Source: Haliotis cracherodii
Lineage: Eukaryota
Assembly (NCBI RefSeq): GCF_022045235.1
Contig: NW_027266297.1
Location: 73,222,001 to 73,286,000 of the forward strand
Length of the DNA: 64,000 bases
Reading direction: 5' to 3'
The notes beneath the pieces were generated by a model. That model had not been told where the DNA came from. It saw only the letters and a list, made by a program, of their open reading frames with translations, and did no database searches. The first letter of the stretch is position 1. Every line of letters starts with the position of its first letter. Shown here one piece after another: positions 1-52,879 of this stretch. A program made the translations under genes and the position numbers.

Positions 1-192
1 TGTGTGTGTGTCTTCCCATCATGTAGTGTGTTCACTTCATTATGTGGCCTCTTCCTGATGTGTGCCCCCCTCTTGATGTGTCTCTCTGTTTTGATATGTG
101 TATTCCTGTTGATGCGTGGTTATTCTCTGTCGTTTCCTCTTGATAATAGTTCTCTTCTTGATAAATGTTCGCTTCTTGAGAAGCGTCTTCTC

Positions 193-1012
193 TTGATGCG
201 TGTCTTCCTCCTGGTGTATGTCTCCCTAGTGTCCTGTGTCGTCTGCTTGATGTGTGTCTTCCTCCTGGTGTATGTCTCCCTAGTGTCATGTGTCGTCTGC
301 TTGATGTGTGTCTTCCTCCTGGTGTATGTCTCCCTAGTGTCATGTGTCGTCTGCTTGATGTGTGTCTTCCTCCTGGTGTATGTCTCCCTAGTGTCCTGTG
401 TCGTCTGCTTGATGTGTGTCTTCCTCCTGGTGTATGTCTCCCTAGTGTCATGTGTCGTCTGCTTGAAGTGTGTCTTCCTCCTGGTGTATGTCTCCCTAGT
501 GTCCCGTGTCGTCTGCTTGATGTGTGTCTTCCTCCTGGTGTATGTCTCCCTAGTGTCATGTGTCGTCTGCTTGATGTGTGTCTTCCTCCTGGTGTATGTC
601 TCCCTAGTGTCCTGTGTCGTCTGCTTGATGTGTGTCTTCCTCCTGGTGTATGTCTCCCTAGTGTCTTGTGTCGTCTGCTTAATGTGTGTCTTCCTCCTGG
701 TGTATGTCTCCCTAGTGTCTTGTGTCGTCTGCTTGATGTGTGTCCTCCTCCTGGTGTATGTCTCCCTAGTGTCTTGTGTTGTCTGCTTGAAGTGTGTCTT
801 CCTCCTGGTGTATGTCTCCCTAGTGTCATGTGTCGTCTGCTTGATGTGTGTCTTCCTCCTGGTGTATGTCTCCCTAGTGTCATGTGTTGTCTGCTTGATG
901 TGTGTCTTCCTCCTTGTGTATGTCTCCCTAGTGTCCTGTGTCGTCTGCTTGATGTGTGTCTTTCTCCTGGTGTATGTCTCCCTAGTGTCATGTGTCGTCT
1001 GCTTGATGTGTG
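193..1012. repeat. 54-bp minisatellite (~15 copies), degenerate copies extend to ~1 and ~1500
   Basis: Unit TTGATGTGTGTCTTCCTCCTGGTGTATGTCTCCCTAGTGTCATGTGTCGTCTGC; gives the 18-aa periodic ORFs in the track. Confidence 0.95.
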
Positions 1013-1694
1013 ACTTTTCTCTGGCGTTGACGTTTTATATTTTCACATAATGTGTGTCCTCCTCTTGGTGTGTGTCTTCTTCTTGATGTGTATTCTAGTC
1101 TTGTTGTGTGTCCTCTCCTTGATGTGCGTCTATCTTTTAATGTTTGTCCTGTTGATATGTGTCCTCTTCTTGAAGCGTGTCTTCCTCTTGATATGTGTGG
1201 CTCTTCTTCGTGTTGAGTGTCTCCATGTTGATGTGTAGTTATTCTGACATTTCCTGTTATGTTCTCTTCTTGATGTATGATATATATCTTCCTAGTTTAT
1301 CTGTGCCCCCTCTCTTGGTGTATTTCTTCCTCTGGGGTGTCTTCCTCTTGATATGTGTGGTTCTTCTTCGTGTTGAGTGTCTCTCTGTTGATGTGTAGTT
1401 ATTCTGAAAAATTCTTAATATATGATATATATCTTCCTAGTGCCCCCTCTCCTGGTGTATGTCTTCCCCGTGTCCTGTGTCGTCTGCTTGATGTGTGTCC
1501 TCATCCAAACCCCAATCAAGGGACGCAACTCCTTCGACCTATAGTCTGAGATCTGTAGAGTGAGATCTCTCGCAGCCTTCATGCATGAATCCCTGGTCCT
1601 CTTTATTTAACTTGTGTTCAAATCCCAAACTTTACTATAAAGCGACCACACCAGTGGACACCATATATGTATCCAAATCATCTTCCCTCCACAG

Positions 1695-1916
1695 CTTTCT
1701 GCCGAATACCCTCCCTCGGCAACGGCACAGTTCACAACGTCACCGTTGGCTCTTATGTGCCCATCACGTTCAAGATCCATGTGACCTGCAACGTTGGTTT
1801 CAGGCTTACGAAAGGCATAACAACACACCATTCAGAACACGACATTCCACTGCATCCCGATGAGAACATGTGCTTGTCGACCGGCAAGTGGGCAGAAGAA
1901 TATATGTGTCAGTGGG
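1695..1916 (+). CDS. Internal exon encoding a Sushi/CCP (SCR) domain; gene A, upstream exons not identified
   Basis: Acceptor tcttccctccacag|, donor G|gtaag, symmetric phase 1-1. FCRIPSLGNGTV...VTCNVGFRL..G...CLSTGKW....C has the four-Cys/Trp Sushi pattern. Confidence 0.8.
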
Positions 1917-2895
1917 GTAAGGTGGTCGACCTCGGTTCTGTTGTGTACAGACAGTGTATTCGTATTAGAACAAAAGCGACAAAACCCTTTCCATATACAT
2001 AAGAAATCAGAGTCGATTATAGGACTTGGACTATATCATGACCATGTGTTTATTATTCAATGTCAAATAATGATGGTACTAGGTGTTCGCGGAGAAGACA
2101 CCACATGGTCCGGTCTATAGAAGACGTTGTTTATACAACACGCATGCAGTTTGATTGGCTCATTGCAAGGTCGCATATACAAATGTACGTTTAACCTCAA
2201 TTGTGTAGATGGCCATACCACCTCCCCACCCCCCACCACCACCCCAAAAAAATACAATTTTTTTTAACAAAAATACAAAAATACAATTTTTTTATAGGAT
2301 AGTATGATATATTCCTTGAATCCTCTTTTGGACTTTTCAAGTATTTTTATGGCAGAATCTACCATAAAAAACATTAAATTGTAAACATTTAACTCTCTAT
2401 TCCCATTATTCACTAAGTGGACCAGTTAGGTAGACTATTTGCAATGTTCAGACCGGAGTGTATTGACACTATGATGAAAAGCCGTTACTGGAACGACATG
2501 ATGAGGACTATATGTAGCTATGGTAATGTTATATATTGGACAGGATGGAAATATTGTCCAACGTTTGGTACTGTCCAGGGGGACTGAATGTAACCTCTTC
2601 AGTTGGGCATTTTGTCACACCACAATAGTATTCTGTATTACGAACTGACACTGTCAGAGTCAATATCACAAGAAGAGATGTTATAGTTGTCCTCTAACAG
2701 TATCAATAGTATTATAGTATACATGTATCGATTTTAAAGATGCCGAGGTTTTACTTGTTAATTTTACTCTTTTTGGTTACTAGTTACTAGTTCTACTAGG
2801 GGCCCTGTTGTGCCCCAAAGGTACTAATAATTGATAGCCAGGGTTTTAGTTCTGATATCATTGTTAATGATACCTCTTTACTGTGCGTTTTCCAG

Positions 2896-3117
2896 ACATG
2901 CCCTACAAAATACATGGAACCTTTTCTCGTGGAATCGTCAAGTTCTACGTCACCTCTAAATTTTTGGTTCCCCCGGGGATACGGACTCTGGACGTGATCT
3001 GCATTGGGGGTGGGGGAGGAGGGTTCTCACGGGGGAGGCCTGGAGGGGACGGAGGGACATCAATATTCGCTGGTCGCCTGGAAGCATTCGGAGGAGGAGG
3101 CGGATCAGGTCGGCATG
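2896..3117 (+). CDS. Gene A exon: N-terminal half of glycine-rich (polyglycine) domain
   Basis: Acceptor gcgttttccag|, donor G|gtgag, phase 1-1 compatible with the Sushi exon; FLVPPGIRTLDVICIGGGGGG...GGDGGTSIFAGRLEAFGGGGG. Confidence 0.8.
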
Positions 3118-3571
3118 GTGAGACAGTGTGTATGACGTCATACCTCGTCACCATAGCTTATAAATGGACTAAATGATAACACAACACTCGGACATATTGA
3201 TACAAATTAAGTTTCGATCAGAGATACATGTACATATCCTTGCGGCCGCGCATGTACATGACAGTGCCAGTTCAGCAAACTTTGACTTTTCTCCTTTTTT
3301 TACGTTCTCTTCGTAATTTAGTTGTTGAAACGCATACCCATGACAAAAAAATGAAAATCAATTTATACATGTTAGTGTAGACTAAGTGAATTTGATCTTG
3401 AGAAATCAGGAATTTGTGTGCAAACTGGTAAATTATCGTTGACAAAAGAATATTTGTAGACATCTGTGAATGTGGTTGTTAGCATGAGCAACATCCCGCA
3501 TCGTTGTAGGAGTATTTAAGACAGGCTGACTCACAAACGTTACTCAGTGTAATCGTCTAACGTCTAATGTC

Positions 3572-3736
3572 AGTTGGTGCTGTTTGGTAGCCAAGTGGTT
3601 AAAGCGTTCGTCGTCACGCCGAAGACCCGGGTTCGAATCCCCACATGGGTACATAGTGTGAAGCCCATTTCTGGTGTCCCCCGCCGTGATATTGTTGGAA
3701 TATTATTAAAAGCGGCGTAAAACCATACTCACTCAC
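3572..3736 (+). mobile_element. tRNA-derived SINE (family A) in gene A intron
   Basis: A-box TAGCCAAGTGG, B-box GGTTCGAATCC, (ACTC)n tail, TSD TCTAATGTC; matches copy at 23313. Confidence 0.9.
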
Positions 3737-3939
3737 TCTAATGTCTGGTTTTACAGGGTAATATAGACCTATTCTACCTTTCGCGAGAAAATGTCCTTAC
3801 TTTTCAATTTGACCATTTGTATCATGTTGGACATGCAAAAGTCTGGTACTTTAGTGTCTTCTCATTAAAATTGTACGAGGACATTCTCAGTTAATGGCAA
3901 TTAAGGCCTGTAATGTAAGTGACATGGTTTGTTTCCCAG

Positions 3940-4499
3940 GCGGCACAGGCGGTTGGGGATATAGCCACAATGGTGGTCGAGGCGGGGACAATGGCACATG
4001 CTGGTTCGGCGGAGCGACTGGACAAATTGAGAGATATCCATTTGCCTGCGTCATCGGATCTACAGACTGCCCCTTCTGTGGCGCCGGGGGCTACGGCAAC
4101 ACCACGGACTGCGTGGCAACTAACTGTACGGTGCTCTCGGGGGCGTGTTCTGGGCCTTGGGCCATCACCCGGACAAGTCTGAGCGGGTCGGACTATGGCG
4201 GGGGTGCTGGGAGTCTGGCAGGGGGGAGCGGCGGGGCAGCGGGGTATTCCAGGAGACGCTGGATGCACGTGAAGCCAGAAGAGATTGTGAATGTGACGGT
4301 CGGTGCGGGTGGCCACCCGTCGTCAGCCTCCCCTGGGGACGGGATTGTTGTGGTGGCGTGGGGAGATAAAATAGAAAACTTTCATCCGTCAGATGAGGAA
4401 TGGAAACGAAGGTCGTGTCATTATCTGAATCCTCGTTGTTCGTGCGTTTTGAGAACCATGAACACCTACCGACTTGCTAAACCCAATAGATACTTGTAA
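3940..4499 (+). CDS. Gene A exon: C-terminal half of glycine-rich domain with Cys-rich insert (3' end uncertain; possible donor near 4411)
   Basis: Acceptor ggtttgtttcccag|, phase 1; ...GGGAG..GGSGGAAGYSRRRWMHVKPEEIVNVTVGAGG...GDGIVVVAW; ORF stop at 4499. Confidence 0.75.
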
Positions 4500-4710
4500 T
4501 CATGTAGCAGTGTCATTGTTATAACAAGGGTTTGAGCTATGTTTATCGCGTTGTGACGTCTTGTATATTTGTAACCACCACTCTGTTATCTGTACTTTAA
4601 GTCTGAGAAAGCAGATGGACGGGGCGTTTATCTGCACCTACTATAATCTGCTGATTTTGAAGGTCAAGGTCAGTGATCAAGGTCAGGGACGTTACCTCAA
4701 TCTGAGACAT

Positions 4711-4834
4711 TTTAATACCCTTGTTAGATCCTTTAATACCCTTGTTAGATCCTTTAATACATTTGTTAGATCATTTAACACCCTTCGTAGATTCTTTAAT
4801 ACCCTTGTTAGATCCTTAAATACATTTGTTAGAT
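4711..4834. repeat. 21-bp minisatellite (~6 copies)
   Basis: Unit TTTAATACCCTTGTTAGATCC. Confidence 0.85.
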
Positions 4835-5084
4835 CATAGAGAGCATGGATGGGCCCAGTTGTCTAAGCCTGTTCAAGGCTGCCAGTTTTTGATGGTCAAG
4901 GGTTTGAGTCGTGCGAAGTATGTATGTTTCCTGGTTTGTCAGCGCCAAACCTCTGTTGGCAAACATCTTCCGCCAAATGTAGGCTCTCCTTCCTTGCTTT
5001 TGCGTCCTGCTATGTATATATCAACTTAATATAGCTTCGATTGCACCAACGGCAAAACGGAAACACGCGTTTTTCTATTGTTGT

Positions 5085-5240
5085 TGTTTGTTTGTTTGTT
5101 TAACGCCGCACTCAGCAATATTCAAGCTATATAACGGATGTCTGTAAATGATCGAGTCTGGACCAGACAATCCAGTTCTTGATATCATAAGTATCGATCC
5201 GCGCAATTGGGATACAATGACATGCATCAACATCAAGTCA
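5085..5240 (-). mobile_element. SINE-like family B, 5'-truncated copy
   Basis: Reverse complement of the 3' part of 16876-17110 including (AAAC)n tail. Confidence 0.75.
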
Positions 5241-5244
5241 ACAT

Positions 5245-5465
5245 TATTCCAGTTAAATCACGGCGTGTCAGCTTAATGTGGGAGGAAAGCACGAAGTGAT
5301 GCAGGCCTCAGACGTTCGATAAAAACCCACGAGCACGTGTGTGGTGCTGACATATCTAGAACCATAATCGGGGCGAATCGGGAATAGAACTCACAATCAT
5401 AGGTTTTTGGCGTGCCCAAGGGACACAACCCTGCACAGCGAATCATCCCACCTTAGGCGACTGGA
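5245..5465 (-). mobile_element. SINE family C, diverged copy
   Basis: Collinear with 43856-44142 (cacggcgtgtcagcttaatgtgggaggaaagc...ggcgtgcccaaggga). Confidence 0.75.
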
Positions 5466-7184
5466 TAGAGTTGAGAGCTGATGCAGGCACGTGCAGTCTG
5501 TCCAGCATCGCAGCCGGAGAATTTTATATATACCTCAATAAACACAAAACAACAAAAGTCACTTCAATCACAATCATCCAGTCACAACTAGTTACACTTA
5601 AGTGTAATGGATACAATGCCCTTCCCTGTAAGAGGCAACATTCTGTGGTTCAGTCAGATAAAGAAATCGAGTAATTCAATGAAAATTGTGTACACTCACC
5701 GCTTTTACGATTATACCTCAATAAACGCAAACTATCTGAAGTCAATTCTTATTTAGATTCCAATATAAATTTTGATTTTGATTACCTTTTACATAATTGA
5801 AATATTGTTGATGTTAATTTATCATCCAAAACTGACTCCCACAGAAGATATCACTTGGCTGGGATCAAGCGATTTATTACCCACCTGGTGAAGATACAGG
5901 TGGTAAGATACTAAATCCGTACGTCACACGTGTGTCGTACAAGGTTGACCTCGTTTAATTCGATTTGATTGGATAACCGTGACCTCTGTGACACCGGGAC
6001 TACTTTTTCCATTCATAAAAAAATTACGAGACGTCATTCATTTTGCAACTACAGGGCAGAACTGAAGCAATCTTATAAAAGCGAGAGATATTTACAAACA
6101 CTTTTTCAAACCAAAACAAGACAGTCACATGCATCAAATTCGGTTTGCATTCTATATCAGTTATTCATAGAGCTTCTACAAACATTATATTATCGAGCTG
6201 TATCCCTTTACAATATACGATCTTCTATCGAGGGTTCCCATGAGCGTGACGCAACTGACCACTTTCGCAACTTTCAATTTGATTTAACCTAAAAAGATAA
6301 GCCTGGTGAAATGAAGTCAGTTTAGACTTATCTCGACAGATATCTGGACTTACTTGGGATGCTCCGGTTGTGCCATCAGTGTCCTCTTTGAAGCGTACTT
6401 TTTGGCACGAGTTGTTTGGTCACGACTGCCCGACCAGATCACTAAAAGTGAACTTTTCCGATACAAATCATTCGAAAACTCCCTAGAAGGGTGTCTGACT
6501 TCTTCTGATTATGTGGCCCAAAACATCCCAAATGTGAAAAATATCATTCGCTATTTCTAGCGTAAAAGCAGTTAGTAGATCACGGTTGTCTTTTCTTATT
6601 TCGGTGGTGACCTTGCTCTTTGTTCGAAGCTGTCACTGACATGCAAGCGGATTTGAGTGTTGAGTTTCACGTCTACAGGGTGGAACAGTTAACATGAATG
6701 TCTTTGGCGAACACTCTAATTTCTCTCTTCCAAAATGAATATAAATTCAGCTGATTGATCAAGGAAACCGAACCATTTTAATTGCACAGCGAGTGTCCCA
6801 CTGTTGGTCCGATATTCAAGCGCGGCCGTTCTGTGACTTTTAAAATTTAAAATATTTCGCTTTCGCTCGGTCAGATAACATAGAAAGTCCACTCGTTTCG
6901 TAAAAATGGTATCTGACGAGAATGAGTGAAGTATTCTCTCTATATACATTGTAGATATCGCTGTAATGAAATTGCATCACAATGCTTTGCAGACATGACG
7001 TCACAATCAAATGACATCACTATGGCTCTGCTGCTGAAGCTGTTAGCAGTATTTTTTACACTGAAGACATTGCTTATTACTGTCTGCAAACTGAAAAAAT
7101 TGAAAGAATGATGTTGGATGATAAATAGAATCTCACCCTTGTGTCTTCTGATATCAAATATACACATACAAACACATACAAGTC

Positions 7185-7418: not shown

Positions 7419-10400
7419 TAGCCCATGAGCCAGACCAGATATTGGTACCATCTGGGGTGGCAAAATCTCAGTATGATTTTTTTAAAGTCATATATCCATA
7501 GATGAAAAGAAATATTTGAAAGCAATCCAGAAATCACAGCTTAGTGGTAGTAATCACCACATAAAGGGGGACTCCTGAGTCGAATCCACGGAACTAGATT
7601 TCGGGCTAGGGGAAACCAGAAAGTGAAATAACTTTACAAGCAATAGTCATATGGTGAAGTATGACCACTCACAATGTTGGTAACCTGATGCTCTACATGT
7701 TGGTATGTAACATAGGACTAAGATGGTAACCAGAGGTCAAAAGGTCACAAGTTTTGACCTATGCTTAAAATATTACTACCTACAAGAAAATATATTGTAG
7801 ATGCCACACCAATAGGACTTTCTTAACCCAATTGGGATATGATCGAAGCCAAGACGTACCTAAGTCTGATAAAAGGAACTTTATTGTCTTTTATGGGGTG
7901 GTACAGAATGGTTTTTGATTTATTTTAAAAGATGTAAAATTGTATAAGTTCACATGAATTTATAACTCTCAACTCCAAATTATAAGGGCTATGTGTGCTA
8001 AATTTCGTCAGAAGTTGTTTTGAAGATACATTGTTCTTTTTGGGGGGCTCACAAGATGAAACAGAAGGTGAAATTGGGGGCAAATTAGTTATGCTTACCG
8101 CAAAAACATAAAATGCAGTTATCTGTTGCATAATGAATATAAATATTTGATAAGATCACACAACTAGACTGTCAAAAACTATTTTTTATCACATTAGTGT
8201 TAGAAACTTAAGTCTTGTTTATTGTAGACCAAAACAAGGGTGGTTGCATATGAGTCTGCTACAATATAGTACACCGCTGCTTACTCATCATCAGGACCAT
8301 CAACATCACTGGCTTCAAATATCAACCTCGACCTTAACTTGCTGATTGCTACATGTCTGTAATTTGCAATGGTATGTTTATATAAGACAGGTACAGCTCT
8401 CCAATTTGAGTATATGTTTGGTCAAGGAAGCACGAAACAGAGGCTGTGGAAGCAGCAGCAGCACTAGATTTAGCTGCTGCCTCTTTCCAAACTTAGTGTA
8501 TAGCAAGAGCGATGGCAATGTCCTTCAGCAGCCACTCCAAACACATTAACTGCTCCCTTTAAAAACGATGGATGAGAGTTATATCCCTTAAAAGGCAGAT
8601 GACACTGATTGGATTCCTTTTTAAGAAAGTTTAGTAATGTGACTTGGAAAACGTGTATTTGATCATTTAAACTTTCCTATATGTTAAGTAGAGTTAAATA
8701 CAATCTCTCAAAAAAAACGCAACCTCAGTCTGAAATTGTGAGAAAGCCCCAAGAAGAAAAATGTTGATTGTAAATACAGTTTTTCTAATATGCACGTATA
8801 CCATGTACATTGTTTATTAACGTAAGCGCCCAAACACACCAATTTTCGTGCACAAGGGCATTTTTTTGTTACTTTTATCATAGTGAGCAAAATTTTCTCG
8901 TGGCCCATGCCAAAAGCCTCATGCGAGTGCAATTCATGGAAAGAGCAGTAGAAGTATGGGTTTATAAAAGCACGTGTTGATTAGCAATTCACTCTATCAT
9001 TTTCACCGAAAGACAAGGTCGAATATGCCACGGTTGAGTGCTGCAGATCGAAATATCGCCATTGGTCCTATTGAGGCCGGACAAAGCTTTGGAAACGTTG
9101 CCCGGCACCTCAATATTCATAAAACAACGATTTCCCGACTTTTGAGCCGATACACCCAGTTTCATGCAACTGAAGATCGCCCCAGAGGTGGTAGGCCAAG
9201 GGTTACCACACCACCTCAGGATCGATTCATCCGGGTCACACACCTACGTAATCGGCTAGCCACACCTACCGTCACTGCAACATTCTAACGTCAACGTGTT
9301 ACCATGGCCCTCCCGATCACCAGACATCAACCCAATCGAACATCTTTGGGATTATCTGGACCGACGAGTACGTGCACGTTCACCGCCGCCGCAGACGTTG
9401 GATGCACTAGCCGTTGCACTGCAGGAGGAGTGGAGAGCAATCCCTCAGGAAAGAATCCGGCGTCTAATCCGTTCTGTTCCTAGGAGGTGCAATGCTGTGA
9501 TCGCAGCTCGTGGCGCTCAATGGAGGTACTGAGAAAGACGCCCCATTGCGTCAAGTCAATCTTAGTGAGAGAACTGTCGAAGTCTGGACTTAAACTTGCA
9601 TAACTGCACTGCCATCATGCCAAATTTCATATTGTTGTCTTCAATAATAAATGTGTTATAATAACTTGAATATTGAGATAAACATCTTGAAACTATAGGG
9701 GTTGCGTTTCTTTTTTGAGAGAGTGTATTAGCAACTGTTTTCCTAGAGAAAAAATCCCTTCTATGCTCACATTATGCTTCTGGCTAACATCCCTGTTATT
9801 GTTCTCATGAGGAGGCCATTGAAAGCGAGCAGTCATTGTCTCAAAATTCAACTTTACTACAAAACATTGAGTTTGTCTTTTATTTTGCAGAATAAAGGTC
9901 CAGATGCTTCCCTTCATATTCTAACTTAAAAGGTTATATTTTGTAATATATTCAGGTTGAAACCAAGCTAGTACCATATGGTACTAGATGGCATTCTTCT
10001 TGGATTAGTGGTAACCAAATTACATCAAAATGTAACTTAACGATCATCTGAATACATATAGGGCATGACTATGAGCAATAGGAGTAGTTTTTTTTGTCAA
10101 AACATAGTGACATATTTCCAACAAGTCCAACTTCATACAAATCTTTATACTTTTAGCGCAAAACGACATTTGTCTTAAAATGCATCAAAAACCGGTCTTT
10201 ACCACACCATAAAAGATGATAAATTTCACTTTTTCAGACTTTTAACAGACTTTTAACAAACTTGAGTACTTCTTGGCTTCATTAATGGCCCATTTGGGTT
10301 AAGAAAATCCCATTGTAGTGGTATCTGCAATATATTTTCTGACAGGTGGTAATATTTTAAGCAGAGGTCAAATTTCGTGACCTTTTGACCTTTGGTGACC

Positions 10401-10725: not shown

Positions 10726-11447
10726 TTATTACCGTCTATATACTGAAAATGTTCGAAGAAGGATGTTGGATGATAAATAAGATCTCAACTTCATGTCTTT
10801 TGATATCACATATATCAATACACGTTGATAAAAGTGGAAAATCTCGTAGTTTTAAACTTTTATCGACTCGTGTTCATCTCCAGCCAACAACAGCACGATA
10901 AATGTCATTTGGAACCCATTTTGCAAGATGTATAATTTAAACAAAACAACAATAAACTTAACAATTCATTTGTTATCATGATACTACATCATCAAGTTCC
11001 GATGGAGAATCTATTCGTTATGTACAGTATGAAGTGTATATGTTGGCGAAATTACCCGATTACTCCCGAGCAGACCCGACGCTGCTACTCCCCTGGGCAG
11101 GCCGCTCAATACTGTTTACATTAGGGGCCAGTGAGTCTAAATACAAATGGGCAGTGTTTGTTTACCTCGTCTATTGACTCCCTGTAAGGGAAAACAAACT
11201 GAATAAACGTTCAGCTTCACATATATAAATATGAGATATGAAGCATATATTTCTCACAGGCACTGCAAACTATCGGGCGGTCTCTTGCTACTCGAAATGT
11301 CAACTTGACATTATTACATAACATTTAGGTCAAAGCATCTGCACATGACCCAAATTTGGAAAACCCTCTCGCTCAACAGTGGGCGTACTTGGACATAGAC
11401 TGGTGCTGGTATTTAGCGAGGGTATCCACGGGTTTGAGGGACGCAAA

Positions 11448-11921
11448 ATGTCCGAACAGCCGAATCGGTATTTTGAGGATAAAGACCACGCCGAAGCGTA
11501 TGCTAAATACCGAATACCGTTCACCGCTGCAGTCGTGGATTGTATAGTGCGGTATGTTCAAGATGGCGGCTGCGAGATAAACATGGCGGTGGATATTGGC
11601 TGCGGTACAGGCCACCAGAGCACCACCCCACTTTCCCGCGTCTCCAAGCACGTCATCGGTGTCGACGTCAGTCAGGAACAACTACGACAGACACCATATC
11701 TGAGCAATGTGGAATTCCGAGTCGCGCGAGGTGAAGAAATGGCATGCCTTGAATCCTCTTCCGTGGATGTTGTTTCCGTGGCAACGGCTATACACTGGCT
11801 TGATCTCCCTGCTTTCTACAAGGAGGTAGATCGGGTCCTGAGGCCCAGGGGGTGTTTGGCGGTTTATTGGATGCACAGACAGAAACTTGACAACGAGGAA
11901 GCCCAGACAACCGTGGAGGAG
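11448..11921 (+). CDS. Class I SAM-dependent methyltransferase (Methyltransf_11-type, DDB_G0268948-like), coding exon 1
   Basis: HAEAYAKYR, motif I VDIGCGTG, VIGVDVS, ATAIHWLD...FYKEVDRVLRPRGCLAV; donor GAG|gtgag phase 0. Confidence 0.92.
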
Positions 11922-14900
11922 GTGAGAGTAAAATGGCAACTCAATCTCATTACAATCAGATCTTAGTTCTCGCTCCCGCTAACAAAGTTAAAATTGTTTG
12001 ATAGGCATTATTTAGAAGTTGAAGGATGGCAAGATAGACACAATTTTATGGATAACACAGTTTAAAGAAGTTGTTATTCATAACATTGTGTCTATCTCGC
12101 TAAACAAAGATCTGAAGACATCCCATTACGGAGCGCGTTATGACGACCTTTCATCCAACCAATCAAATCGTCGCTTACCAGACCAGGGTGCCGTTGTACA
12201 AAACAACCTTAGCAGTACGACTGTCGTAAGTCTATGTGAGCAAGTGGAATCTATGTTTTAATAATATTTTCCTCATTCCGTTTCCGCACAAACTAAGTTG
12301 CGCATTTCGGTTGTTATTGCCTGGCCCAGTTTTTTGTTAAAACACCTATCACCAAGCATGCTGTCTAATGGGCAATCTTTTCAATTTATCTTCCCTTCAC
12401 TAACCCGCTAGGTGCGCTGACCCGAACGGTCCAACCTTAAACTGACGGCGGCGGTATGCGCAATACGAGCACTACATGTTACTATGACGCCTAAACAAGT
12501 ATAATCTTCACCTCCAACGGCAGCGGTCACACACGTGTGGACAGAATATCTATTCGCCTAAACCATGATTTATCTATTGTCATGTCCGGAAATGAATGTT
12601 ACTTGATTTAATTATACATCAGGGATGGACACGACAGATTATATTGTATACTTAACCACTAGATTGGCGTTCGAAGCGATGTGGTGAGATCAGCTGATCG
12701 TTCATTCCAGGTCGCTTTGTTGACATTCTGCAATCGATACTGAAAGTTGCCCTTGATGTATGAATATCACGCTTTTAAAAATTAAGTAGATTTTGTATAC
12801 GTTCCTATATCTATGTTGTAGTATCGCCGAGCAGGCTACACCACATGCACACACACATGTCGGTATGTACAGCGGTAAGACGATGCGGTACGCGACACGT
12901 GAAGGTCTTATGCAACGTAAAGTTGCCCGTAGCCTCAATGTGAATAGTAAATAATGACAGCGACACATGTAAGAATTTGTCAGATATATAACTGAAGGCA
13001 ATGAGAAATGTTTTCAAGAAATTGTAAGAGAAACAGGCACTGTAAAATTATGTCATCAACTAGATATCATAATACAATGTTCAAAATAAACGAAATGGAA
13101 ATCACTGAAATCTGTTTTGATATTTTAGGGTTAATTGGTGCATGTTGTATAAAAGGATTTTATGTATGAATGGTGCCTGTTGCCAATTCTACCATGATTA
13201 TATTTCAATATGATCAATGATAGATATATATTATTTTGGCCTTTTTTAAATTTTACAAAGTAGAAAAAAATAATTTGTAGGACCCTATATATTATTTAGA
13301 ATACATATTCAAGAGTATCTGTACCAACTACAATTTTTATCAAATATATTCATACTAATTTTCAATCTCTATAATGTTGATTGTATTAACATTGCAGTGT
13401 CTACATCCAATTTGTTTTGACAATAATCATGTGATTTTAACACAGATAAAGCTCACTCTTAACTTCATTAGGCCTTGCTTTTATGTTTCCGTATTCTAAA
13501 CTTATGTTTCAAATTCCATCATAAACACATTATTAATGTTATTCTCTTTCTCTTCACACCAACAGGTATCTTCATTGCACAATGACTCTTATTATATTAT
13601 TTAAAGTCTTGGCATACTTGTGCATGTGTACTAGTATTTGATTACACATGCATGAGTTTTTAGCTGTTATCTGCTTCTGAACTGAATATTGTTTCAATAA
13701 AGATAAGTAACATAAAAAAAGACACTGGTATTCTTTCATGTTTAGAGAATCAATCAATTCATTGTGAAAACATTTTTAATTTCTTACATAAGTTACTTTG
13801 ATCTTCATAAGATCCAAATAGATCCAAATTAAAATGAGGAGATTAAATTATGCAGTCCAATTCATTTCAGCCAGTCTGTCTAAAATCCGGTCCTATTTTT
13901 CAGGCAATAATAATTGAATGAAAATTAAAGAAAAAATATACTTTGCCTGAGTGAATCAGTCAATGTACATATTGGGCCTAATTATAAACACCGACTGTAC
14001 CATATGTAAGTATAAACGGGTATATGCAAAAACAAAGAACATAAATAAATCCATTTATCTGCATGGAATGATAGTGGGGTTCAGTTTGCATGTATTTAAC
14101 CATCAGAAGATTTGTTGATAAACATTCTAAATTCATATTTCCTATATGATAATACTATCTACAAAATATATTTTATACTACAGGTGTCTTGAAGCACTGT
14201 TTAGTGAAAATCAGGATATTTAGATACAACAGGATAGTGTGTGGGTTTGTATGGGAAATAATTTGTCAACATTAAAATAAGTATAATGTTACTAACACAA
14301 GAAGATAATACTACATCTTTTTAGGCATCATACACATTTTGTGGGGTAGTCAGTATGATTTGTTGTTTGTAGGGACTATTTACTACTATATGAAGAGCAT
14401 GAGTATCAGAATTCTGTAAGAAATGATGGATCAATGAATTAACACCTGTGATGACTCAGAACATTTAATGGTGGGACACATGTTATAAAGGGCAGAATAA
14501 TATGGGTAAATCTCTTCTTTCAAAGCATGATGACTAATATGTATATTGCAACTGAATAACTGAGTGCTTAATAGATGCATGGTAGATTTTCATTTGGCAT
14601 ATTTCTAAAAATATAATCTAAATTTAAATATTCAGATGCAACTTTAATTTTGAAATAAAAAGTAACATTTAAAATCAGTTATTTTATTATTTTGAACGTT
14701 ATTTCTTCATAAAATATTTGTAAAGGCATCGATGTATACTTAGTTTATAGATCATCGGTAAAGGTCTGGGCCTGTCAAAGATGTCTGTGTGCTGCAAATG
14801 TAGGCGTATCACTTATTTAATTAATTTGAAGTCCATGCATGGTAGTATTTGTTGAGATTTGAATGCTTCGAATTGTTGTGGGAAATAACACAAAGGCTGA

Positions 14901-17402: not shown

Positions 17403-18905
17403 AACTAGTGTCCAAAAGAAACGATACCACCTGTTTGCAACGACATACAAGAAAAACTAAACAATGCAGAAGTTTAGGATTGGAGTTATGCTTTTGAGAA
17501 ATCCTTTCACAACATCTGTACAAAAATTTCATTTCAAGCCTTTAAAGATGGGTGGGGTCGAAAAATGAACATTTCGTTAGAGCACTGATCACAGAAACAA
17601 CGGGAAATGTCACACCACACGTCTCAAAGTCAAGTCAGTAGCGGGTATGTCCACCGTGAGCATCAATACATGCCAGAACACGCCTACGGACTGATGACGT
17701 CAAACGTCTGATGACGTTGGGAGTGATGCGTTGCCATTCCTCGAGGAGACATCGTTCCAAGTCCTGGACGTTGACTGGAGGCACACGGCGACGTCGGATT
17801 TGCCGATCGAGGTGGTCCCATAAGTGCTCGATGGGATTCATGTCCGGTGAACATGCGGGCCATGGCAAAACCTGTACGTTGGCGTTGGCAAGGAAGTTCT
17901 GTGTCAATCTTGCTGTGTGGCCTTGCATTGTCATGTTGGAAAAGGAGTCCACGAGGCTGTTGCTGAATAAAGGGCACCACAACAGGCCGTAGGATGTCAT
18001 CAAGATAACGCTGTGCATTCAGGTTTCCACGAATTACGACAAGCATCGTTTTGACGTCACCACAAACCATTAACCCTCCACCTCCAAACGGCCGGACCTG
18101 TTGGATACAGTTAGGCGCCAAACGTTCACCAAATCGTCGGTATACAAGCTGCCGTCCATCGTTTCTGAACATGAGGAATCTGCTCTCATCAGAGAACATA
18201 ACACGTGCCCAGTCCCGCCGTTGCCAACGTCGAACTCGCCTGGCCCAGATCAGTCTGTTGTTCCGGTGTCGAGGCGTCAGGAGCGGTCCGCGGTAGGGAT
18301 GACGTGGCCGGATACCATACTGCCGTAGTCTCCTGTAGACGGTCTGTCGACTGATCCTGTGTCCCAGTTCTGTAGCCGCCGTGGACGTCGCTGTTACGAT
18401 GCGGTTCCTCAGGTGTAATACCCGGATGTAACGATCTTCACGGGGCGTGGTTACTCGTGGTCTTCCACTCCTGGGCCTGTCTGACGTCTGACCTGTCTGA
18501 CGTAACCGCTGCATCAACCTGGTGATAGTGATGCGTGCGCAACCCAACCTTCTGGCGACGTCGACGTGTGACGCTCCTTGTTGGACCATTCCAACGGCTC
18601 CCTCTCTCTCGATGGCTGTCAAACGTGGCATATCTTGTGTTCATTTTGTTGCTGTGATATCAACGTGTCTGATCAGCCGTTTTATACAGTTTTTATGCAC
18701 GTGCAGAACATGCTAGAGAGGGAAATGTCACTTTCACGAAATTTACGTTTTTTCCCGGAAGTGATCACGTGTTCCCGGTATTTTTTATCGACTATGCTGT
18801 GTTTGGGATGTGCAATACGAATTGGCATGTTTTCATACTAGACAATTCACTTAATAAAAAACAATTTTGAAAATAAGTTGGTATCGTTTCTTTTGGACAC
18901 TAGTT
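17403..18905 (-). mobile_element. Near-intact Tc1-like (DD34E-type) transposon in methyltransferase intron 2
   Basis: Perfect 27-bp TIRs AACTAGTGTCCAAAAGAAACGATACCA, TA TSD on both sides. Confidence 0.95.
17635..18631 (-). pseudogene. Tc1 transposase, one frameshift near 17915 and a small in-frame deletion
   Basis: MPRLT..HTH, GRPRVTT, FSDESRF, HDNARPH, then shifted frame WPACSPDMNPIEHLW...GGHTRY. Confidence 0.9.
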
Positions 18906-28133: not shown

Positions 28134-29090
28134 TTACATTACCCTGTCCGGAAAAATGAAATTTGATGATAAAAAAACAAAGCAGATGACAATAAAACCG
28201 ATCGCCCATACGCATCACGGCCACGGCCATGGTAACCCGATGTACGTGAGTTCCGTGCAAATTGAAATGCACATGCGTTCCCCCATTTCTTGCCCTTTGA
28301 ACATCCACCCAAATCGGATAACATTCATTCGTTATTGAATTGCTACCACATGCCAAGATTGACAAGAAATCAGCGACACCAAGCCCTTGGACGATTGCCA
28401 ATTGGTCAAACCGCCCGGCAAGTAGCCAATGCATTGCAAGTCCACGTAAGGACCATATACACGCTCCAGCAACGGTACCAGACCACCAAAACTACAGATG
28501 ACCGACCACGTAGTGGAAGACCAACGGTTACCACCCGACGTCAGGATCGTCAGATTATGCGACAGCATCTTCAAGACTGCTTTGTTACTGCTGTGGATGC
28601 TGCTCGCCAGACCATGGGGACACGCCAGCGACACATTAGTGTGGACACCGAGCGTCGACGACTGACGAGCAGACACCTCCACTGTCACAGGCCACAACTG
28701 GGACCCATTCTGACACCACGTCATCGCCGAGACCGTCTTCAGTGGGCAACACAGCACCAGCATTGGCGCCAGCAGGAGTGGAGATGACTCCTCTTCTCAA
28801 ACGAGAGCCGTTACTGTATCTCAACACCAGATGGCAGAGAGTCTGGCGACACCGTGGAGAACGTTATTCGGATGCTTGTGTTGTTGAGAGACTCGTGGGG
28901 TGTTTCGAGCATCATGGTGTGGAGTGGAATTGGTCTTGCACAGAGGTTCGGCTCTGTGGTCTTCCAGAACATCGGTGCAGGGAGAGACAATGTTGTCACA
29001 GCAGCTCGGTTCATTGATCAAGTCTTGAGACCACATGCCATACCTCATTTGGCACCTCGCCGCAACCACCAGTTTCAGCATGATAATTGT
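28134..29090 (+). mobile_element. Tc1-like transposon remnant, 3'-truncated
   Basis: MPRLTRNQRHQALG (28350)...RPRSGRPTVTT...SIMVWSGI...FQHDN, with frameshifts. Confidence 0.85.
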
Positions 29091-29215
29091 GATTATTGAT
29101 TATTTGTGAAATTGGTGATTGTTACACAGTTCTTTGTGGTGATATGAACAGGTGAACTGAACTGCAACTGATCTTTTGATGATGGTTTTGGTAAATACAA
29201 AGTTCCATTTGGTGA

Positions 29216-29499: not shown

Positions 29500-30850
29500 T
29501 AAACTAGCGGGCAAGAGAAAGAGAGAAAGGTATCATGAGTATCTATCTATCTATGTCAATTTTCCAAAACTGCACGAAAACAGTTGGGAACACATAGCTG
29601 GAATGCAGCTTTCCTATTCCCTGTGAACATGTGCATGCGCTTCACGTGATTTGCGAGAAAAGTGAATTTAACACTAAATAATGCAAAATCTGCACAATGT
29701 TTCCCGCATGAAATTCTGATTTAAAGCATGAGCAGGATTACACTCTCTCATCACATGAAACCGTTTAAAACAACGAACTTGCCTCGACTAACCGCAGAGC
29801 AGAGGGAGAGGGCCATCGGTGTTTTGCAAATGGGAGCGATGCAGGAGCTCGTTGACAGATCATGGGCTGCTTCAAGTGCACTATCGCCAGACTTGTCACA
29901 CGCCACAGGCAAACTGGCACTACTGCAGACAGGCCGAGGAGTGGAAGACCCAAGGTCACGAACCCACAGGAAGACCGATATTTACGGGTGTTTCACCTAA
30001 TGTCCAGATTCCCAACTGTGACGACATCTTCCGCAAACAACCTTGGACATCCAGTTAGCGGAAGGACCGTTGCTAGACGACTACGCCTGTATGGTCTCCT
30101 TGCCTATTGACATTTCAAGGGCATGACGTTAACGTTTCTACACCGACGTCACAGACAGAGATGGGCCAGGATTGTTCAGCAGTGGCAGCAGAGAAATTGG
30201 CGAAGACTGCTCTCAAGCGACAAAAGTAGGTGCCACCTCATCAAGTCTGATGGGCGGGTTCGAATCTACCAACGACATGGTGAACGGTCGGCACGTTGTT
30301 GCGTCCAAGAAGTGGAGCCTTATGGAGGTGGTAGTGTCATGGTCTGGGGTGGCATCTGCGGGGAACAGAAGACAGATCTGGTCATCATCGACGGAAATCT
30401 CACTGCACGTCGTTACATTGACATGGTTTTGCGGCCTGTGGTACTGCCTTTCCTGCATCGACACTCATGGACGCTGTGAGAACAACGCCACCCCTCGCAC
30501 AGCTCGAGTAACTAGCGACTTTCTGAACGCCAACAACGTGACCGTATTACAATGGCCAGCCAGATCACCGGACCACTCGCCCATAGAACTGGGACCAACT
30601 TGGACGCAGGATTCGGAAACAGCCGCCATTGACGAGGGATACCTGCAGGAAGAATGACGTATAATCAGGATGTCAGGAGACTCGTGTACTCAGTTCGACG
30701 TCGTGTAAGGGCCTACATCGTTGCTGGAGTAGGTCACATCCGGTAATGAGCCATGTGTATAGCACGGGACTTCAAAAGTAATCGACGTCGATTCTGCGGG
30801 TGTGATCGAATACTGGACAGTACACCCATGATAAACGTGTCTGCAGAATT
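29500..30850 (+). mobile_element. Tc1-like transposon remnant
   Basis: LPRLTAEQRERAIG...RPRSGRPKVT...GGGSVMVWGGICG...WPARSPDHSPIE...GHIR*, multiple frameshifts. Confidence 0.85.
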
Positions 30851-35076: not shown

Positions 35077-36135
35077 ATACTCAACAACAAAGGTTCCTGT
35101 GACACCAATATTTAAGTGTATTTTCCAACAAAAGTAAAGTTTGGTTTTCAATATTGTAGTACATGTATGGAGTCAAGTCGCAAAAACGCAACTGCTACAG
35201 AAAAGCATGCCTTCCATGCAAAAGACTTTTATGCACGCCCCATGCATTTCACGACTCAAGAATGGGTGTAAAACGTGTGCATTAACTGGATTTCATATGC
35301 ATTGAAAAAAAATAAAAAATTACGCAATTATTCAATATTAGGAAATGCCACGCCTGTCCGAAAATGAGCGTCTGCGAGCCATTGGTTTGCTTGAAGCAGG
35401 ATCGAGTCAATGTGATGTTGCAAGACAATTTAACGTCCACAGAAACACCATTTGGTGTTTATGGCAACGTTGGCAACAGACGAATGCAGTCAGAGACCAT
35501 CCTCGGAGTGGCAGACAACGCGTCACAAATAATCGACAAGACTGGATTCTGGATTCGAACAACACACCTACGAAATCGATTCCAGCAAGCAACGGTGACT
35601 GCAAGAAGCATCCCTGGCCTTCGACGAATATCTTCACAAACCGTACGTCGTCGCCTCAGATGTGCAAGGATTGTCGCCAGAAGACCACCGTTTGACAGGA
35701 AACCACCGTCAAGCATGGTCTACGCTGGACGGCCTTGCAGTGGGGACAAGTTCTATTCACTGACAAGTCTTGTTTTCACCTCAGCCACAGCGATGAACGA
35801 GTTCGAATGTACCGACGTCGAGGTGAACGTTACGTCAATCATTGTGTCATGGAAGAAGATCGGTTCGGGGGCGACAGCGTTATGGTATGGGATGGGATTA
35901 CAGCAAGACAGAGGACCCGTTTGATAGTGGTAGGGGGGAATCTCAATGGACAGCGCTACCGCGACGAGATCATCGGCCCTGTTGTTCTACCGTTTTTGCG
36001 TCGTCATGGCCCAGGCATTACCTTTCAACATAATAACGCCTGGCCTCATATTGCTCGATTTGTTCAGGATTCTCTTCAACAAAACAACGTGAATGTCATC
36101 CCCTGGCCGGCTCGCTCCCCTGATCTCTCGCCAAG
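35077..36135 (+). mobile_element. Tc1-like transposon remnant in FReD intron
   Basis: MPRLSENERLRAIG (35345)...VLFTDKS..GGDSVMVWDGI...WPARSPDLSP, truncated. Confidence 0.85.
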
Positions 36136-36250
36136 GCTAGCTAAGTACAATGTTTATTCCTAATACAGGATATTTACCATCCCCAAACACACTCGCGTGA
36201 TAACCTCAATATATTCAATGTGCATTAACAGAACACTGATTTTTATTTAG

Positions 36251-37947: not shown

Positions 37948-38078
37948 NNNNNNNNNNNNNNNNNNNNNNNNNNNNNNNNNNNNNNNNNNNNNNNNNNNNN
38001 NNNNNNNNNNNNNNNNNNNNNNNNNNNNNNNNNNNNNNNNNNNNNNNNNNNNNNNNNNNNNNNNNNNNNNNNNNNNNN
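37948..38078. other. Assembly gap (N run)
   Basis: Run of N. Confidence 1.
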
Positions 38079-38318
38079 ATCAACTGGTTTGAGATACCGG
38101 GCCTGTGCCAATTTCCATTACTGTCGAATGACAAAATAGTTAACAGAACCTACCAAACACCCGATCCTCATTTAGTTATATAGGACAGATGAGTTTTATA
38201 CCATTCACTCGCACACGGACACGTTCACACATGTCGTTGGAGTTACCAAGTATTTCTTATCAACAAAGTTTTTTTTTGTCTGTCGTTAATCTGTTCCAGT
38301 TATGTTCTTATGATATAG

Positions 38319-38483
38319 GCAATGAGAACATCCGGCGCATCATCCAAGGGCGACAATTCGAGCTGCGTATCGACTTTGAGGACTTTGAAGGGGAACACAG
38401 ATATGCCCGTTACCAAAACTTCTTCATCGGCAACTTTGCAGAACACTATGCTCTAGATATATCGGGCTTCAGTGGCGACTGTG
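38319..38483 (+). CDS. FReD gene exon
   Basis: tag|NENIRRIIQGRQFELRIDFEDFEGEHRYARYQNFFIG...YALDISGFSGDCG|gtaag. Confidence 0.9.
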
Positions 38484-40500
38484 GTAAGAAACTATGCTCA
38501 TAATATCTTGTGCGCCATTGGCGTGGAGGTAAGCAGTGGGCTTAAAGAACACTGTGCTCTACATATCTCAGACTCCAGTGGCCTGAAGGTAAACTTTTGC
38601 TTTGCAGAATAATTTGCTCCACATATCGTCAGTGGCGCCAGTGACGCGAATGTGCAATGGTCTTACAGAAGACTGCACTCTACATATATCGGGTTCCTCT
38701 GGTGTGAAGATAAGCAGTTGCCTCACAGAACGCTATTTTCTACACATCTCAGACTACAGTGATGTGAAGGTGAGGGCTGGCCTTACAGAACCCTATGCTC
38801 CACAAAAAGTCATATCGGCCTTCATTGGTTTGAAGGTACCAGTGGCCCTGCAGAACAATATGCTCTGAAATTGAGCAGTGGCCCTGCAGAATGATATTCT
38901 TACATATCTTGGGCTTCTCAGGCGTAAATGTAAGCAGTGGTCTTGCAGAAGACTATTCTCAACATGTCTCAGACTTCAGTGGCCTTCGGTGTAAAGGTAA
39001 GCAATGGCCTTATAGAACAGGATGCTCTACATGTCTGGACTAATGTGGCCTGCGGTGTGAAGGTAAGCAGTGGCCTTATAGAACAGGATGCTCTACAAGT
39101 CTGGACTAATGTGGCCTGCGGTGTGAAGGTAAGCAGTGGCCTTATAGAACAGGATGCTGTTCATGTCTGGACTTCAGTGGCCTGCGGTGTAAAGGTAAGC
39201 AGTGGCCTTATAGAACAGGATGCTGTACATGTCTGGGCTAATGTGGCCTGCGGTGTAAAGGTAAGCAGTGGCCTTATAGAACAGGATGCTGTACATGTCT
39301 GGACTAATGTGGCCTGCGGTGTGAAGGTAAGCAGTGGCCTTATAGAACAGGATGCTGTACATGTCTGGGCTAATGTGGCCTGCGGTGTAAAGGTAAGCAT
39401 TGGCCTTATAGAACAGGATGCTCTACATGTCTGGACTAATGTGGCCTGCGGTGTGAAGGTAAGCAGTGGCATTATAGAACAGGATGCTCTACATGTCTGG
39501 ACTTCAGTGGCCTGCGGTGTAAAGGTAAGCATTGGCCTTATAGAACAGGATGCTCTACATGTCTGGACTAATGTGGCCTGCGGTGTGAAGGTAAGCAGTG
39601 GCCTTATAGAACAGGATGCTGTACATGTCTGGACTTCAGTGGCCTGCGGTGTAAAGGTAAGCAGTGGCCTTATAGAACAGGATGCTCTACAAGTCTGGAC
39701 TAATGTGGCCTGCGGTGTGAAGGTAAGCAGTGGCCTTATAGAACAGGATGCTCTACAAGTCTTGACTAATGTGGCCTGCGGTGTGAAGGTAAGCAGTGGC
39801 CTTATAGAACAGGATGCTCTACAAGTCTGGACTAATGTGGCCTGCGGTGTGAAGGTAAGCAGTGGCCTTATAGAACAGGATGCTCTACATGTCTGGACTT
39901 CAGTGGCCTTCGGTGTGAAGGTAAGCAGTGGCCTTATAAAACAGGATGCTCTACATGTCTGGACTTCAGCAGCCAGCGGTGTAAAGGTAAGCAGTGGCCT
40001 TATAGAACAGGATGCTCTACATGTCTGGACTTCAGTGGCCTTCGGTGTGAAGGTAAGCAGTGGCCTTATAGAACAGGATGCTCTACATGTCTGGACTAAT
40101 GTGGCCTGCGGTGTGAAGGTAAGCAGTGGCCTGATAGAACAGGATACTCTGCATGTCTGGGCTAATGTGGCCTGCGGTGTGAAGGTAAGCAGTGGCCTTA
40201 TAGAACAGGATGCTGTACATGTCTGGGCTAATGTGGCCTGCGGTATGAAGGTAAGCAGTGGCCTTATAGAACAGGATGCTGTACATGTCTGGACTTCAGT
40301 GGCCTGCGGTGTGAAGGTAAGCAGTGGCCTTATAGAACAGGATGCTCTACATGTCTGGACTAATGTGGCCTGCGGTGTGAAGGTAAGCAGTGGCCTTATA
40401 GAACAGGATGCTGTACATGTCTGGGCTAAGGTGGCCTGCGGTGTGAAGGTAAGCAGTGGCCTTATAGAACAGGATGCTCTACATGTCTGGACTTCAGCAG
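38484..40500 (+). repeat. Intron-filling tandem array: ~7 degenerate ~60-bp units then ~23 homogeneous 66-bp units
   Basis: Unit GTAAGCAGTGGCCTTATAGAACAGGATGCTCTACATGTCTGGACTAATGTGGCCTGCGGTGTGAAG, homologous to the end of exon 38319-38483. Confidence 0.95.
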
Positions 40501-40730
40501 GGGACTCGATGGCTTATCACAATGGTCAGGCATTTTCAGCCCTTGATTGTGACCTTGATGCTGCCGATAATTCCTGTGCACAACAATGTCCAGGAGCGTG
40601 GTGGTACAAAAAATGCCAGCGTTCGAATCTAAATGGGGAATACAACAACACAGGCGTTGACAAAGAGATCACCTGGGAAACTTGGCGCGGTTTCAAATAC
40701 TCTTTGAAAACGTCAGTGATGAAAGTATGA
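40501..40730 (+). CDS. FReD gene terminal exon (possibly early pseudogene)
   Basis: cagcag|DSMAYHNGQAFSALDCDLD...CAQQCPGAWWYKKCQRSNLNGEY...WETWRGFKYSLKTSVMKV*. Confidence 0.85.
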
Positions 40731-52420: not shown

Positions 52421-52879
52421 TCCTCCGAAACATCTGACATATGACCAGTTGACTAACGCTTTGTCTGTGAAAATATTTAATTTTTACAGAAATAATCTAC
52501 TACATTTAATTGAAAAGGAGCCCCAGTGATATTGGATGGAGACCTGTAGGAAATCTAGACTTACTTCATTTAGGGCGACATCATTACGACAAGGGCTGGG
52601 TGGTAGGGCAAGTTATATGTCTGAGGGACTGTGAGACTGACTATTTGACCAGTAACGTATCTGTTTTCCTCTGAAAGTCTATGTTCAAAGAGCTTCGTAG
52701 CACGGACCGTTGACTGGTGAAAAGCGTCCCGGTATGTATTCAGTAGTGAATGCGGCGGAACGAGCTGTTCAAGTAGAGTAAGCGTGACTCATGTCTCTGA
52801 ATACTTGTATAGCAAGTATTAACATAACTTAGAACTTGTAAAATTGATGTGACATGTAACTACTACACTTCACCGCAGT

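Follow-up and report, generated by a model that had tools for sequence, protein, structure and literature searches.

A molluscan gene family in which a sushi domain precedes a glycine-rich domain whose predicted fold resembles phage tail-fibre tips

Three exons at positions 1695 to 4499 of the window (by which we mean the whole 64-kb stretch of Haliotis cracherodii DNA analysed here) are the 3' end of a longer gene that is incomplete within the window. The explanation that best accounts for the evidence overall, and that is probably correct, is that they are the spliced end of a mollusc-wide gene for a likely secreted propeller/EGF/sushi protein that ends in a vertically inherited polyglycine domain, with this domain likely binding a foreign or matrix surface. 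In the identity of the gene and the architecture of its product, taken jointly, our confidence is high. The fold itself is already known. It is the animal family and its architecture that appear to be undescribed and misnamed.

The combination of a beta-sandwich with polyglycine is rare among solved structures, and the animal examples in the papers cited here are ALK and LTK. The locus reveals a second animal family predicted to have the fold, in gastropods, bivalves and amphioxus mosaics, whose layout is nearer to that of phage fibre tips. A search of the literature, in which subscription journals are thinly covered, found neither this animal family nor the TRIM-like carriers of the domain (see below) described, and the string “mollus” does not occur in bioRxiv 10.1101/2023.11.25.568672 and PMC13243192. 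The family is hidden under names such as “LRP-like” and “PE-PGRS-like” because the order of its motifs holds its score below the Pfam cut-off.

Gene structure and transcript contigs

The features of the locus are as follows.

1695..1916, + strand: internal exon, phase 1 at both ends, that codes for the single sushi/CCP domain (222 nt; four Cys and Trp)
1917..2895, + strand: intron, GT..AG, 979 nt, 37% GC (spanned by X12 record 1 and X14 record 7)
2896..3117, + strand: coding exon for a linker and for the first strands and glycine tracts of the predicted beta-sandwich/polyglycine domain (222 nt; Gly_rich_2 E = 0.025; profile positions 1–71)
3118..3939, + strand: phase-1 intron, GT..AG, 822 nt (spanned by X16 record 23)
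3940..4499, + strand: last coding exon, for a Cys-bearing loop region, the rest of the glycine tracts, the closing strands and a Cys-bearing tail (560 nt; profile positions 72–212)
4500..5790, + strand: likely 3' UTR (AATAAA at 5537 and 5720; the contig pieces that cover it are separate, and no single record spans it)

The initial annotation, made from the letters of the DNA, had proposed three phase-1-compatible exons with GT-AG sites, and the gene model stands. The five splice dinucleotides all follow the canonical pattern (AG ahead of 1695, GT at 1917, AG at 2894-5, GT at 3118 and AG at 3938-9), and the exons, each of phase 1, join into a single open frame of 333 amino acids that closes with the stop codon TAA at 4497–4499; stops interrupt the other two frames. 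The exons are 51%–58% GC and the introns 37%–40%. The motifs and sequons listed at the outset are all present, and the sequons in the 333-residue spliced product total six. The gene occurs once within the 64-kb window. A high-copy repeat lies inside the second intron at ~3586–3738, where contig depth is very high.

Logan contigs from four runs of four studies (organisms B, C and D), presumed to represent RNA, were aligned to positions 1–6000 of the window. These presumed-RNA contigs join both of the proposed junctions, 1916/2896 and 3117/3940. The first is crossed without gaps in at least two of the four runs (X12 record 1 and X14 record 7) and the second in at least one of the four (X16 record 23). 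As aligned, the contig joins fall at 1915/2895 and 3116/3939; these are equivalent to the proposed positions because a G fits on either side. Records from all four runs start matching exactly at 1695, and four records extend 5' of this point, by 437, 590, 635 and 1002 nt; among the pieces listed, none lies on window positions 1–1694. Because the contigs carry these 437–1002 nt without a match on 1–1694, the gene likely continues 5' of the window.

The first exon carries the four Cys and the Trp of a Sushi/CCP domain (PF00084). Submitted to Pfam alone, it matches Sushi at E = 0.018 with 15.9 bits (curated cut-off 20.7), and orthologues score 23.6 (P0005), 23.5 (P0012) and 20.2 bits (P0160) against the same cut-off. 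The predicted model of an orthologue superposes on CCP modules at Z 7–8.3 with rmsd <2 Å (Z 8.1 and rmsd 1.8 over 60 for a CCP module of CD46). The Cys/Trp pattern and this superposition agree with the earlier assignment of the exon to the Sushi/CCP class.

Orthologues and architecture of the whole protein

The third exon finds protein P0001 of Haliotis asinina (82%, E = 6e-96), as well as proteins of Sinanodonta, Batillaria and Potamilus, and the complete spliced product agrees with P0001 at 272 of 333 positions. Orthologues occur in four gastropod genera (Haliotis, Batillaria, Nucella and Pomacea) and seven bivalve genera (Sinanodonta, Potamilus, Mizuhopecten, Mactra, Ylistrum, Pecten and Mya). 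They are ~1,100–1,300 amino acids long, and several are named “LRP-like” in the databases. Pfam scans place Ldl_recept_b (YWTD) and EGF matches upstream of the aligned sushi domain, and YWTD propellers are present upstream in the orthologues of these 11 genera, the Haliotis P0001 model excepted. The nine complete members begin with a signal-like N-terminus, continue through YWTD/EGF repeats to one sushi domain, and close with the glycine-rich domain and a short Cys-bearing tail. The initial annotation had described a protein of two domains, sushi and glycine-rich, which falls well short of this architecture.

All nine long members have a hydrophobic N-terminus (KD19 1.1–2.1; the signal peptide is judged by hydropathy alone). 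None of the nine contains NPxY or has a hydrophobic segment after the last domain, and internal hydrophobic windows (1.66 and 1.79) occur in two of them, both within folded domains. Pfam gave no match to Ldl_recept_a (LDLa) or to a kinase domain in the orthologues scanned. Judged from sequence, the orthologous protein is likely secreted and membrane-free, and propellers and EGF repeats likely also lie upstream in the H. cracherodii gene, given their place in the orthologues.

Two database names call for comment. The orthologues resemble LRP4/5/6/1 in their repeated YWTD propellers and EGF modules (seen in the orthologues and not within the window), but they end in sushi and glycine-rich domains and are without LDLa modules, a transmembrane helix or an NPxY tail; we therefore reject a true LRP identity. 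P0001, a protein of 357 amino acids without propellers, is named “PE-PGRS-like”. It is likely a truncated model because its start resembles the translated intron that precedes 1695. A PE-PGRS identity for P0001 (an N-terminal PE domain followed by a GGAGG array) was also rejected, as its only matches at E ≤ 0.1 are to Gly_rich_2.

Predicted fold and possible roles of the glycine-rich domain

AlphaFold2 modelled P0001 from 62 aligned rows with a pLDDT of 82.8 and a pTM of 0.80, the model being weaker at the ends and in the loop region (residues 201–240, pLDDT 49–79). An earlier model based on seven rows (pLDDT 59.6) was set aside, having given only non-significant Foldseek rows. When the better model was compared with 48,161 PDB chains using VIA, the best match was the fibre of cyanophage Pam3 (7ypx; Z 10.5, rmsd 3.4 Å, 136 aligned, model range 108–320). 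Second was 9d93_Qa, a tail-tip chain of mycobacteriophage Bxb1 (rmsd 3.0 Å, 133 aligned, 36% identity), at a Z of 8.5 that is close to the 7–8 often reached by unrelated models. The lower rows are CCP modules aligned on residues 25–99, and a repeat search gave the same ranking. Foldseek against the PDB returned no match at E ≤ 0.001. In a library of viral models, 47 fall at E ≤ 0.001. A protein of Satyrvirus, a giant virus, heads them (E 1.7e-11), and seventh comes another Satyrvirus protein, named “E3 ubiquitin-protein ligase”. By DSSP, the glycine tracts of the model are neither helix nor strand and mostly have high pLDDT; Gly accounts for 56 of 207 residues. The domain is predicted to fold as a beta-sandwich that braces a polyglycine bundle, as in phage tail-fibre tips.

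Among sequence families, Gly_rich_2 (PF21722) has the same motif set. Partial matches occur in the second exon (E = 0.025; 15 bits on this exon alone) and in P0001, P0003, P0009 and P0011 (21, 17, 19.1 and 16.5 bits, respectively); the third exon alone has no Pfam match. All of the animal members scanned fall below the Gly_rich_2 cut-off of 24.3 bits, the best at 21. The score stays under the cut-off because the motif order differs from that of the Pfam model: the animal strand order is not the model's, and residues 259–306 of P0001, near the C-terminus of the domain, align to model positions 25–82. The order is a-b-c in the animal members classified. We scanned 161 proteins for motif order, a set biased by the query. 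In 53 of them the order could be classified, and it is that of the window in 49 (many of prokaryote type) and different in four; the other 108 are incomplete. Motif order as an animal innovation was rejected on these grounds, given that 49 of 53 classifiable matches, including many prokaryote-type proteins, have it.

PHROG 863 (“tail fiber assembly”) matches six of the seven seed members, and the Atlas clusters nearest to the domain carry Gly_rich_2. Searches of PDB sequences gave only chance matches to glycine loops and no ALK chain, tblastn of the phage-type member P0120 against 50,697 phage records gave no match, and scans of viral contigs for the domain found no locus. With the Pam3 match at Z 10.5 to the predicted model and PHROG 863 in six of seven seeds, the phage-fibre fold suggested in the initial annotation is borne out at the level of prediction, and the likeness to Gly_rich_2 and ALK that it also named is probably right.

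In Pam3 gp24 (7YPX/7YFW) and Bxb1 9D93_Qa, as in the predicted animal domain, a “TNF-like” beta-sandwich braces glycine tracts over ~135 residues, with a conserved stem and a variable tip. The animal domain differs in that it is split by an intron, bears cysteines and is preceded by sushi and YWTD/EGF modules, whereas the phage proteins have a fibre shaft. Chain Qa of 9D93 may be gp33 of Bxb1, which is called a “tail wing brush” in PMC13243192; brush domains are presumed to bind cell walls in PMC13243795. In Pam3 gp24 a conserved glycine stem is accompanied by a variable tip, for which host binding has been proposed (PMC9608196, section 3.2).

By analogy with these systems, a role in surface recognition is our tentative proposal for the animal protein, one that stands just short of an even balance of belief and doubt. 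The glycine tracts would form a rigid, invariant stem, and variable loops at its tip, stabilized by cysteines, would bind a surface polymer (microbial envelope, glycan or matrix), in the way suggested for their phage counterparts. Sushi would serve as a spacer between this head and the propellers, the propellers would engage host proteins, and the whole protein could thus act as a soluble bridge from a surface to host factors. The company that the domain keeps elsewhere is consistent with such a role. In Branchiostoma it occurs in other mosaics, either beside Fz, Ig and trypsin domains or together with C-type lectin, F5/8, SUEL lectin, kringle and trefoil; the neighbors on which the analogy draws are C-type lectin, F5/8, SUEL lectin, kringle and trypsin. 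In Pelomyxa and other proteins the domain lies C-terminal to RING and B-box, and the C-terminal slot of TRIM proteins is where a target-binding domain is held. Should the domain prove to bind microbes, it would be a recognition module of a new class in invertebrates, with relevance for abalone, scallops and clams in aquaculture.

It should be noted that ALK uses the beta-sandwich/polyglycine fold with a protein ligand, and that a common fold does not show a common function. With the same gene and ancestry, the domain could have a host protein as its ligand, in the manner of the ALK/LTK ectodomain, which would make the product a secreted signaling modulator or decoy (a propeller array like the LRP5/6 ectodomain with an ALK-like head). 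ALK/LTK rows fill the top 10 of the first, low-confidence Foldseek search (E 0.12–0.36) and reach E 0.019–0.064 in the second. One conserved gene per species is seen among the matches found, and gene expansion is typical of invertebrate recognition lectins. [quoted passage not shown] However, the ALK/LTK rows of the second Foldseek search have rmsd of 15–20 Å, and ALK is absent from the best 50 VIA rows, lists that phage fibres lead and CCP modules fill. The mollusc protein has no kinase, membrane helix or other membrane anchor, a stop codon follows the domain, sequential superposition on ALK/LTK is poor, and the amphioxus contexts are lectin/protease mosaics. The ALK-like function is rather unlikely on this evidence, and the mollusc glycine-rich family is separate from ALK/LTK. 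With ~210 residues, the domain is a concrete target for expression and a reference against which the ALK ectodomain's origin can be considered.

The protein could instead be a structural one of matrix, mucus, adhesive or shell, with the polyglycine bundle serving as a stiff element that self-associates or binds polymers and has no part in recognition. We regard this as unlikely. Secreted YWTD/EGF/sushi mosaics do resemble matrix proteins, of which nidogen is an example, and the six sequons also fit. Sushi-containing and glycine-rich proteins are reported from the shell matrix of Haliotis laevigata (PMC6003135), but the shell proteins in the passages cited are others (chitin-binding mosaics), and four motifs searched for in 12 of the 27 supplementary files of that shell proteome are absent from them. 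Furthermore, the domain is predicted to fold into a globular module whose strands are invariant, which sets it apart from low-complexity tracts.

Distribution and ancestry of the domain

A profile built from seven animal domains was searched against 1.84 billion representatives, giving 193 matches at E ≤ 0.001, of which the best 150 were considered. The top matches are molluscan-type and amphioxus proteins and exon-sized fragments. The amphioxus domains are 47% identical to that of the window. Insect, nematode, vertebrate and cnidarian proteins do not occur among the named matches, which are a minority of all matches. The best non-animal matches are RING plus B-box (TRIM-like) proteins, the strongest at E 1e-25. 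They carry one to three copies of the domain at the C-terminal end, and some also have a coiled coil or FN3; one comes from Pelomyxa schiedti and another from a transcriptome set of protists. Small phage-type proteins appear at E 1e-9 or weaker among the matches listed, and a multi-repeat bacterial adhesin (P0038) reaches 2e-15 summed over 16 stretches.

The domain tree has 77 rows and 185 columns; its glycine-rich columns carry little signal, and five rows fail the composition check. An isoform (P0007), a short protein (P0084), two proteins split by inserts (P0010 and P0011), fragments the size of an exon and proteins whose motifs come in the other order were omitted, and a later tree added nine fragments. 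All 20 animal rows lie together on one side of a branch with support of 98/90. Within them, amphioxus is sister to 18 LRP-like rows (99/95), which divide between gastropods (99/91) and bivalves (98/90); P0034, with the same layout, falls outside both. As far as these sequences can tell, the animal domain tree follows the species tree. Support for the animals and the TRIM/RING group as a single clade is 55/0, which neither establishes nor rejects that grouping. An approximately unbiased (AU) test in which Haliotis was forced in with 42 prokaryote-type rows gave a log-likelihood 26 lower and p = 0.055, so this placement is not rejected.

Two further characters bear on descent. At three positions Cys is present in 20, 18 and 20 of the 20 animal rows, and at none of them does it form the majority in the nine TRIM-like rows. 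The second intron of the window maps to profile position 71/72, and many fragments start or stop at profile positions 68–73, including the amphioxus-like P0017 and P0019 (76% and 71% to B. floridae); two Branchiostoma models have an insert at this position. The position of the second intron is thus likely common to other molluscs and amphioxus.

The initial annotation had raised the possibility of a horizontal gain and had named a vertically inherited, conserved family as the finding that would speak against it; such a family is what the domain tree recovers (98/90 for the animal branch). Transfer of an adhesin module from phages or bacteria into the lineage of abalone or of early molluscs, with introns gained afterwards, could draw on the predicted fold being nearest to phage fibres, the many prokaryote-type proteins with the same motif order, the AU result and the patchy distribution among named matches, but it is very improbable given an orthologous architecture throughout gastropods and bivalves, the 47% identity to amphioxus domains, the mirroring of the species tree, the common cysteines and likely common intron, and TRIM-like eukaryotic matches (E 1e-25) that stand well above the phage-type ones (E 1e-9 or weaker). 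Vertical inheritance since before the split of molluscs and amphioxus is likely, and recent transfer unlikely. Because the domain has kin in amphioxus and amoebae, it is likely an old, overlooked animal module and not the product of a recent gene transfer.

At greater depth, the domain may be an old eukaryotic inheritance or may derive from an early transfer, before the protostome-deuterostome split. A wider and more speculative scenario, rather unlikely as a whole, is that the “brush” fold with which phages bind receptors was taken up by animals on two occasions: one gave ALK/LTK, and the other, independent and before the protostome-deuterostome split (possibly via giant viruses or protists), gave a shuffled extracellular module with which molluscs and amphioxus, like phages, would recognize microbial surfaces, the same module being used for target recognition by amoebal TRIM-like E3 ligases. 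The RING/B-box proteins of Pelomyxa schiedti and the Satyrvirus glycine-rich proteins have the same domain in the same motif order as the animal family; unlike the latter, the RING/B-box proteins are cytosolic-type in architecture and without the animal cysteines.

TRIM-like and giant-virus carriers of the glycine-rich domain

Six TRIM-like RING/B-box proteins (the protein hits P0022, which is Pelo_5251 of Pelomyxa schiedti, P0046, P0021, P0059, P0063, and P0064) carry the glycine-rich domain at their C-terminal ends, in one to three copies. Together with LIM/RING/B-box and solo proteins, they form a single clade in the 77-row tree (100/99). The fold of the domain was also matched by BFVD models of three proteins of a giant virus, Satyrvirus sp. 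(A0A3G5AF42, A0A3G5AEW7, and A0A3G5AEZ5), one of which is annotated as an E3 ubiquitin ligase. It is possible that this virus served as a shuttle of the domain between hosts.

Possible additional introns and insertions within the domain

In two Branchiostoma proteins (P0010 and P0011), the glycine-rich domain is interrupted by an insert of about 150 residues that resembles an F5/8-type galactose-binding module, at the point that corresponds to the second intron of the window's gene. The nesting could be genuine, or the gene models could be at fault. Eleven fragmentary hits (P0026, P0029–P0031, P0036, P0037, P0039, P0049, P0050, P0069, and P0097) have boundaries at profile position 145–150, which suggests an additional intron there in caenogastropods and bivalves, one that is absent from exon 3 of the window's gene (3940–4499). 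In another gene model, P0016, the sushi and glycine-rich end is fused with part of a DNA polymerase B type 2; this is likely a chimeric model adjoining a mobile element.

Other coding exons and repeats in the window

Two other coding exons were recognized, and an assembly gap (37948–38078) lies shortly before the second.

11349–11963, +, exon of a SAM-dependent methyltransferase gene (Pfam Methyltransf_11, E=3e-16)
38144–38500, +, exon coding for part of a protein with a fibrinogen C-terminal domain (domain match, E=4.6e-12)

Several putative decayed Tc1/mariner-like transposase frames were recognized by eye, and spurious open frames arise from the long tandem repeats. Summed depth is very high over both SINE-like repeats in all four runs.

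about 8968–9285, 28266–29096, 30111–30476, and 35316–36160, putative transposase frames
about 17638–18640 and 61458–62411, −, putative transposase frames
180–1050, long tandem repeat, unit about 54 nt
38934–40727, long tandem repeat
49745–52441, long tandem repeat with extreme GC skew
3586–3738, high-copy short repeat, SINE-like, within intron 2 of the sushi/glycine-rich gene
about 5076–5450, high-copy short repeat, SINE-like, within the likely 3′ UTR of the same gene
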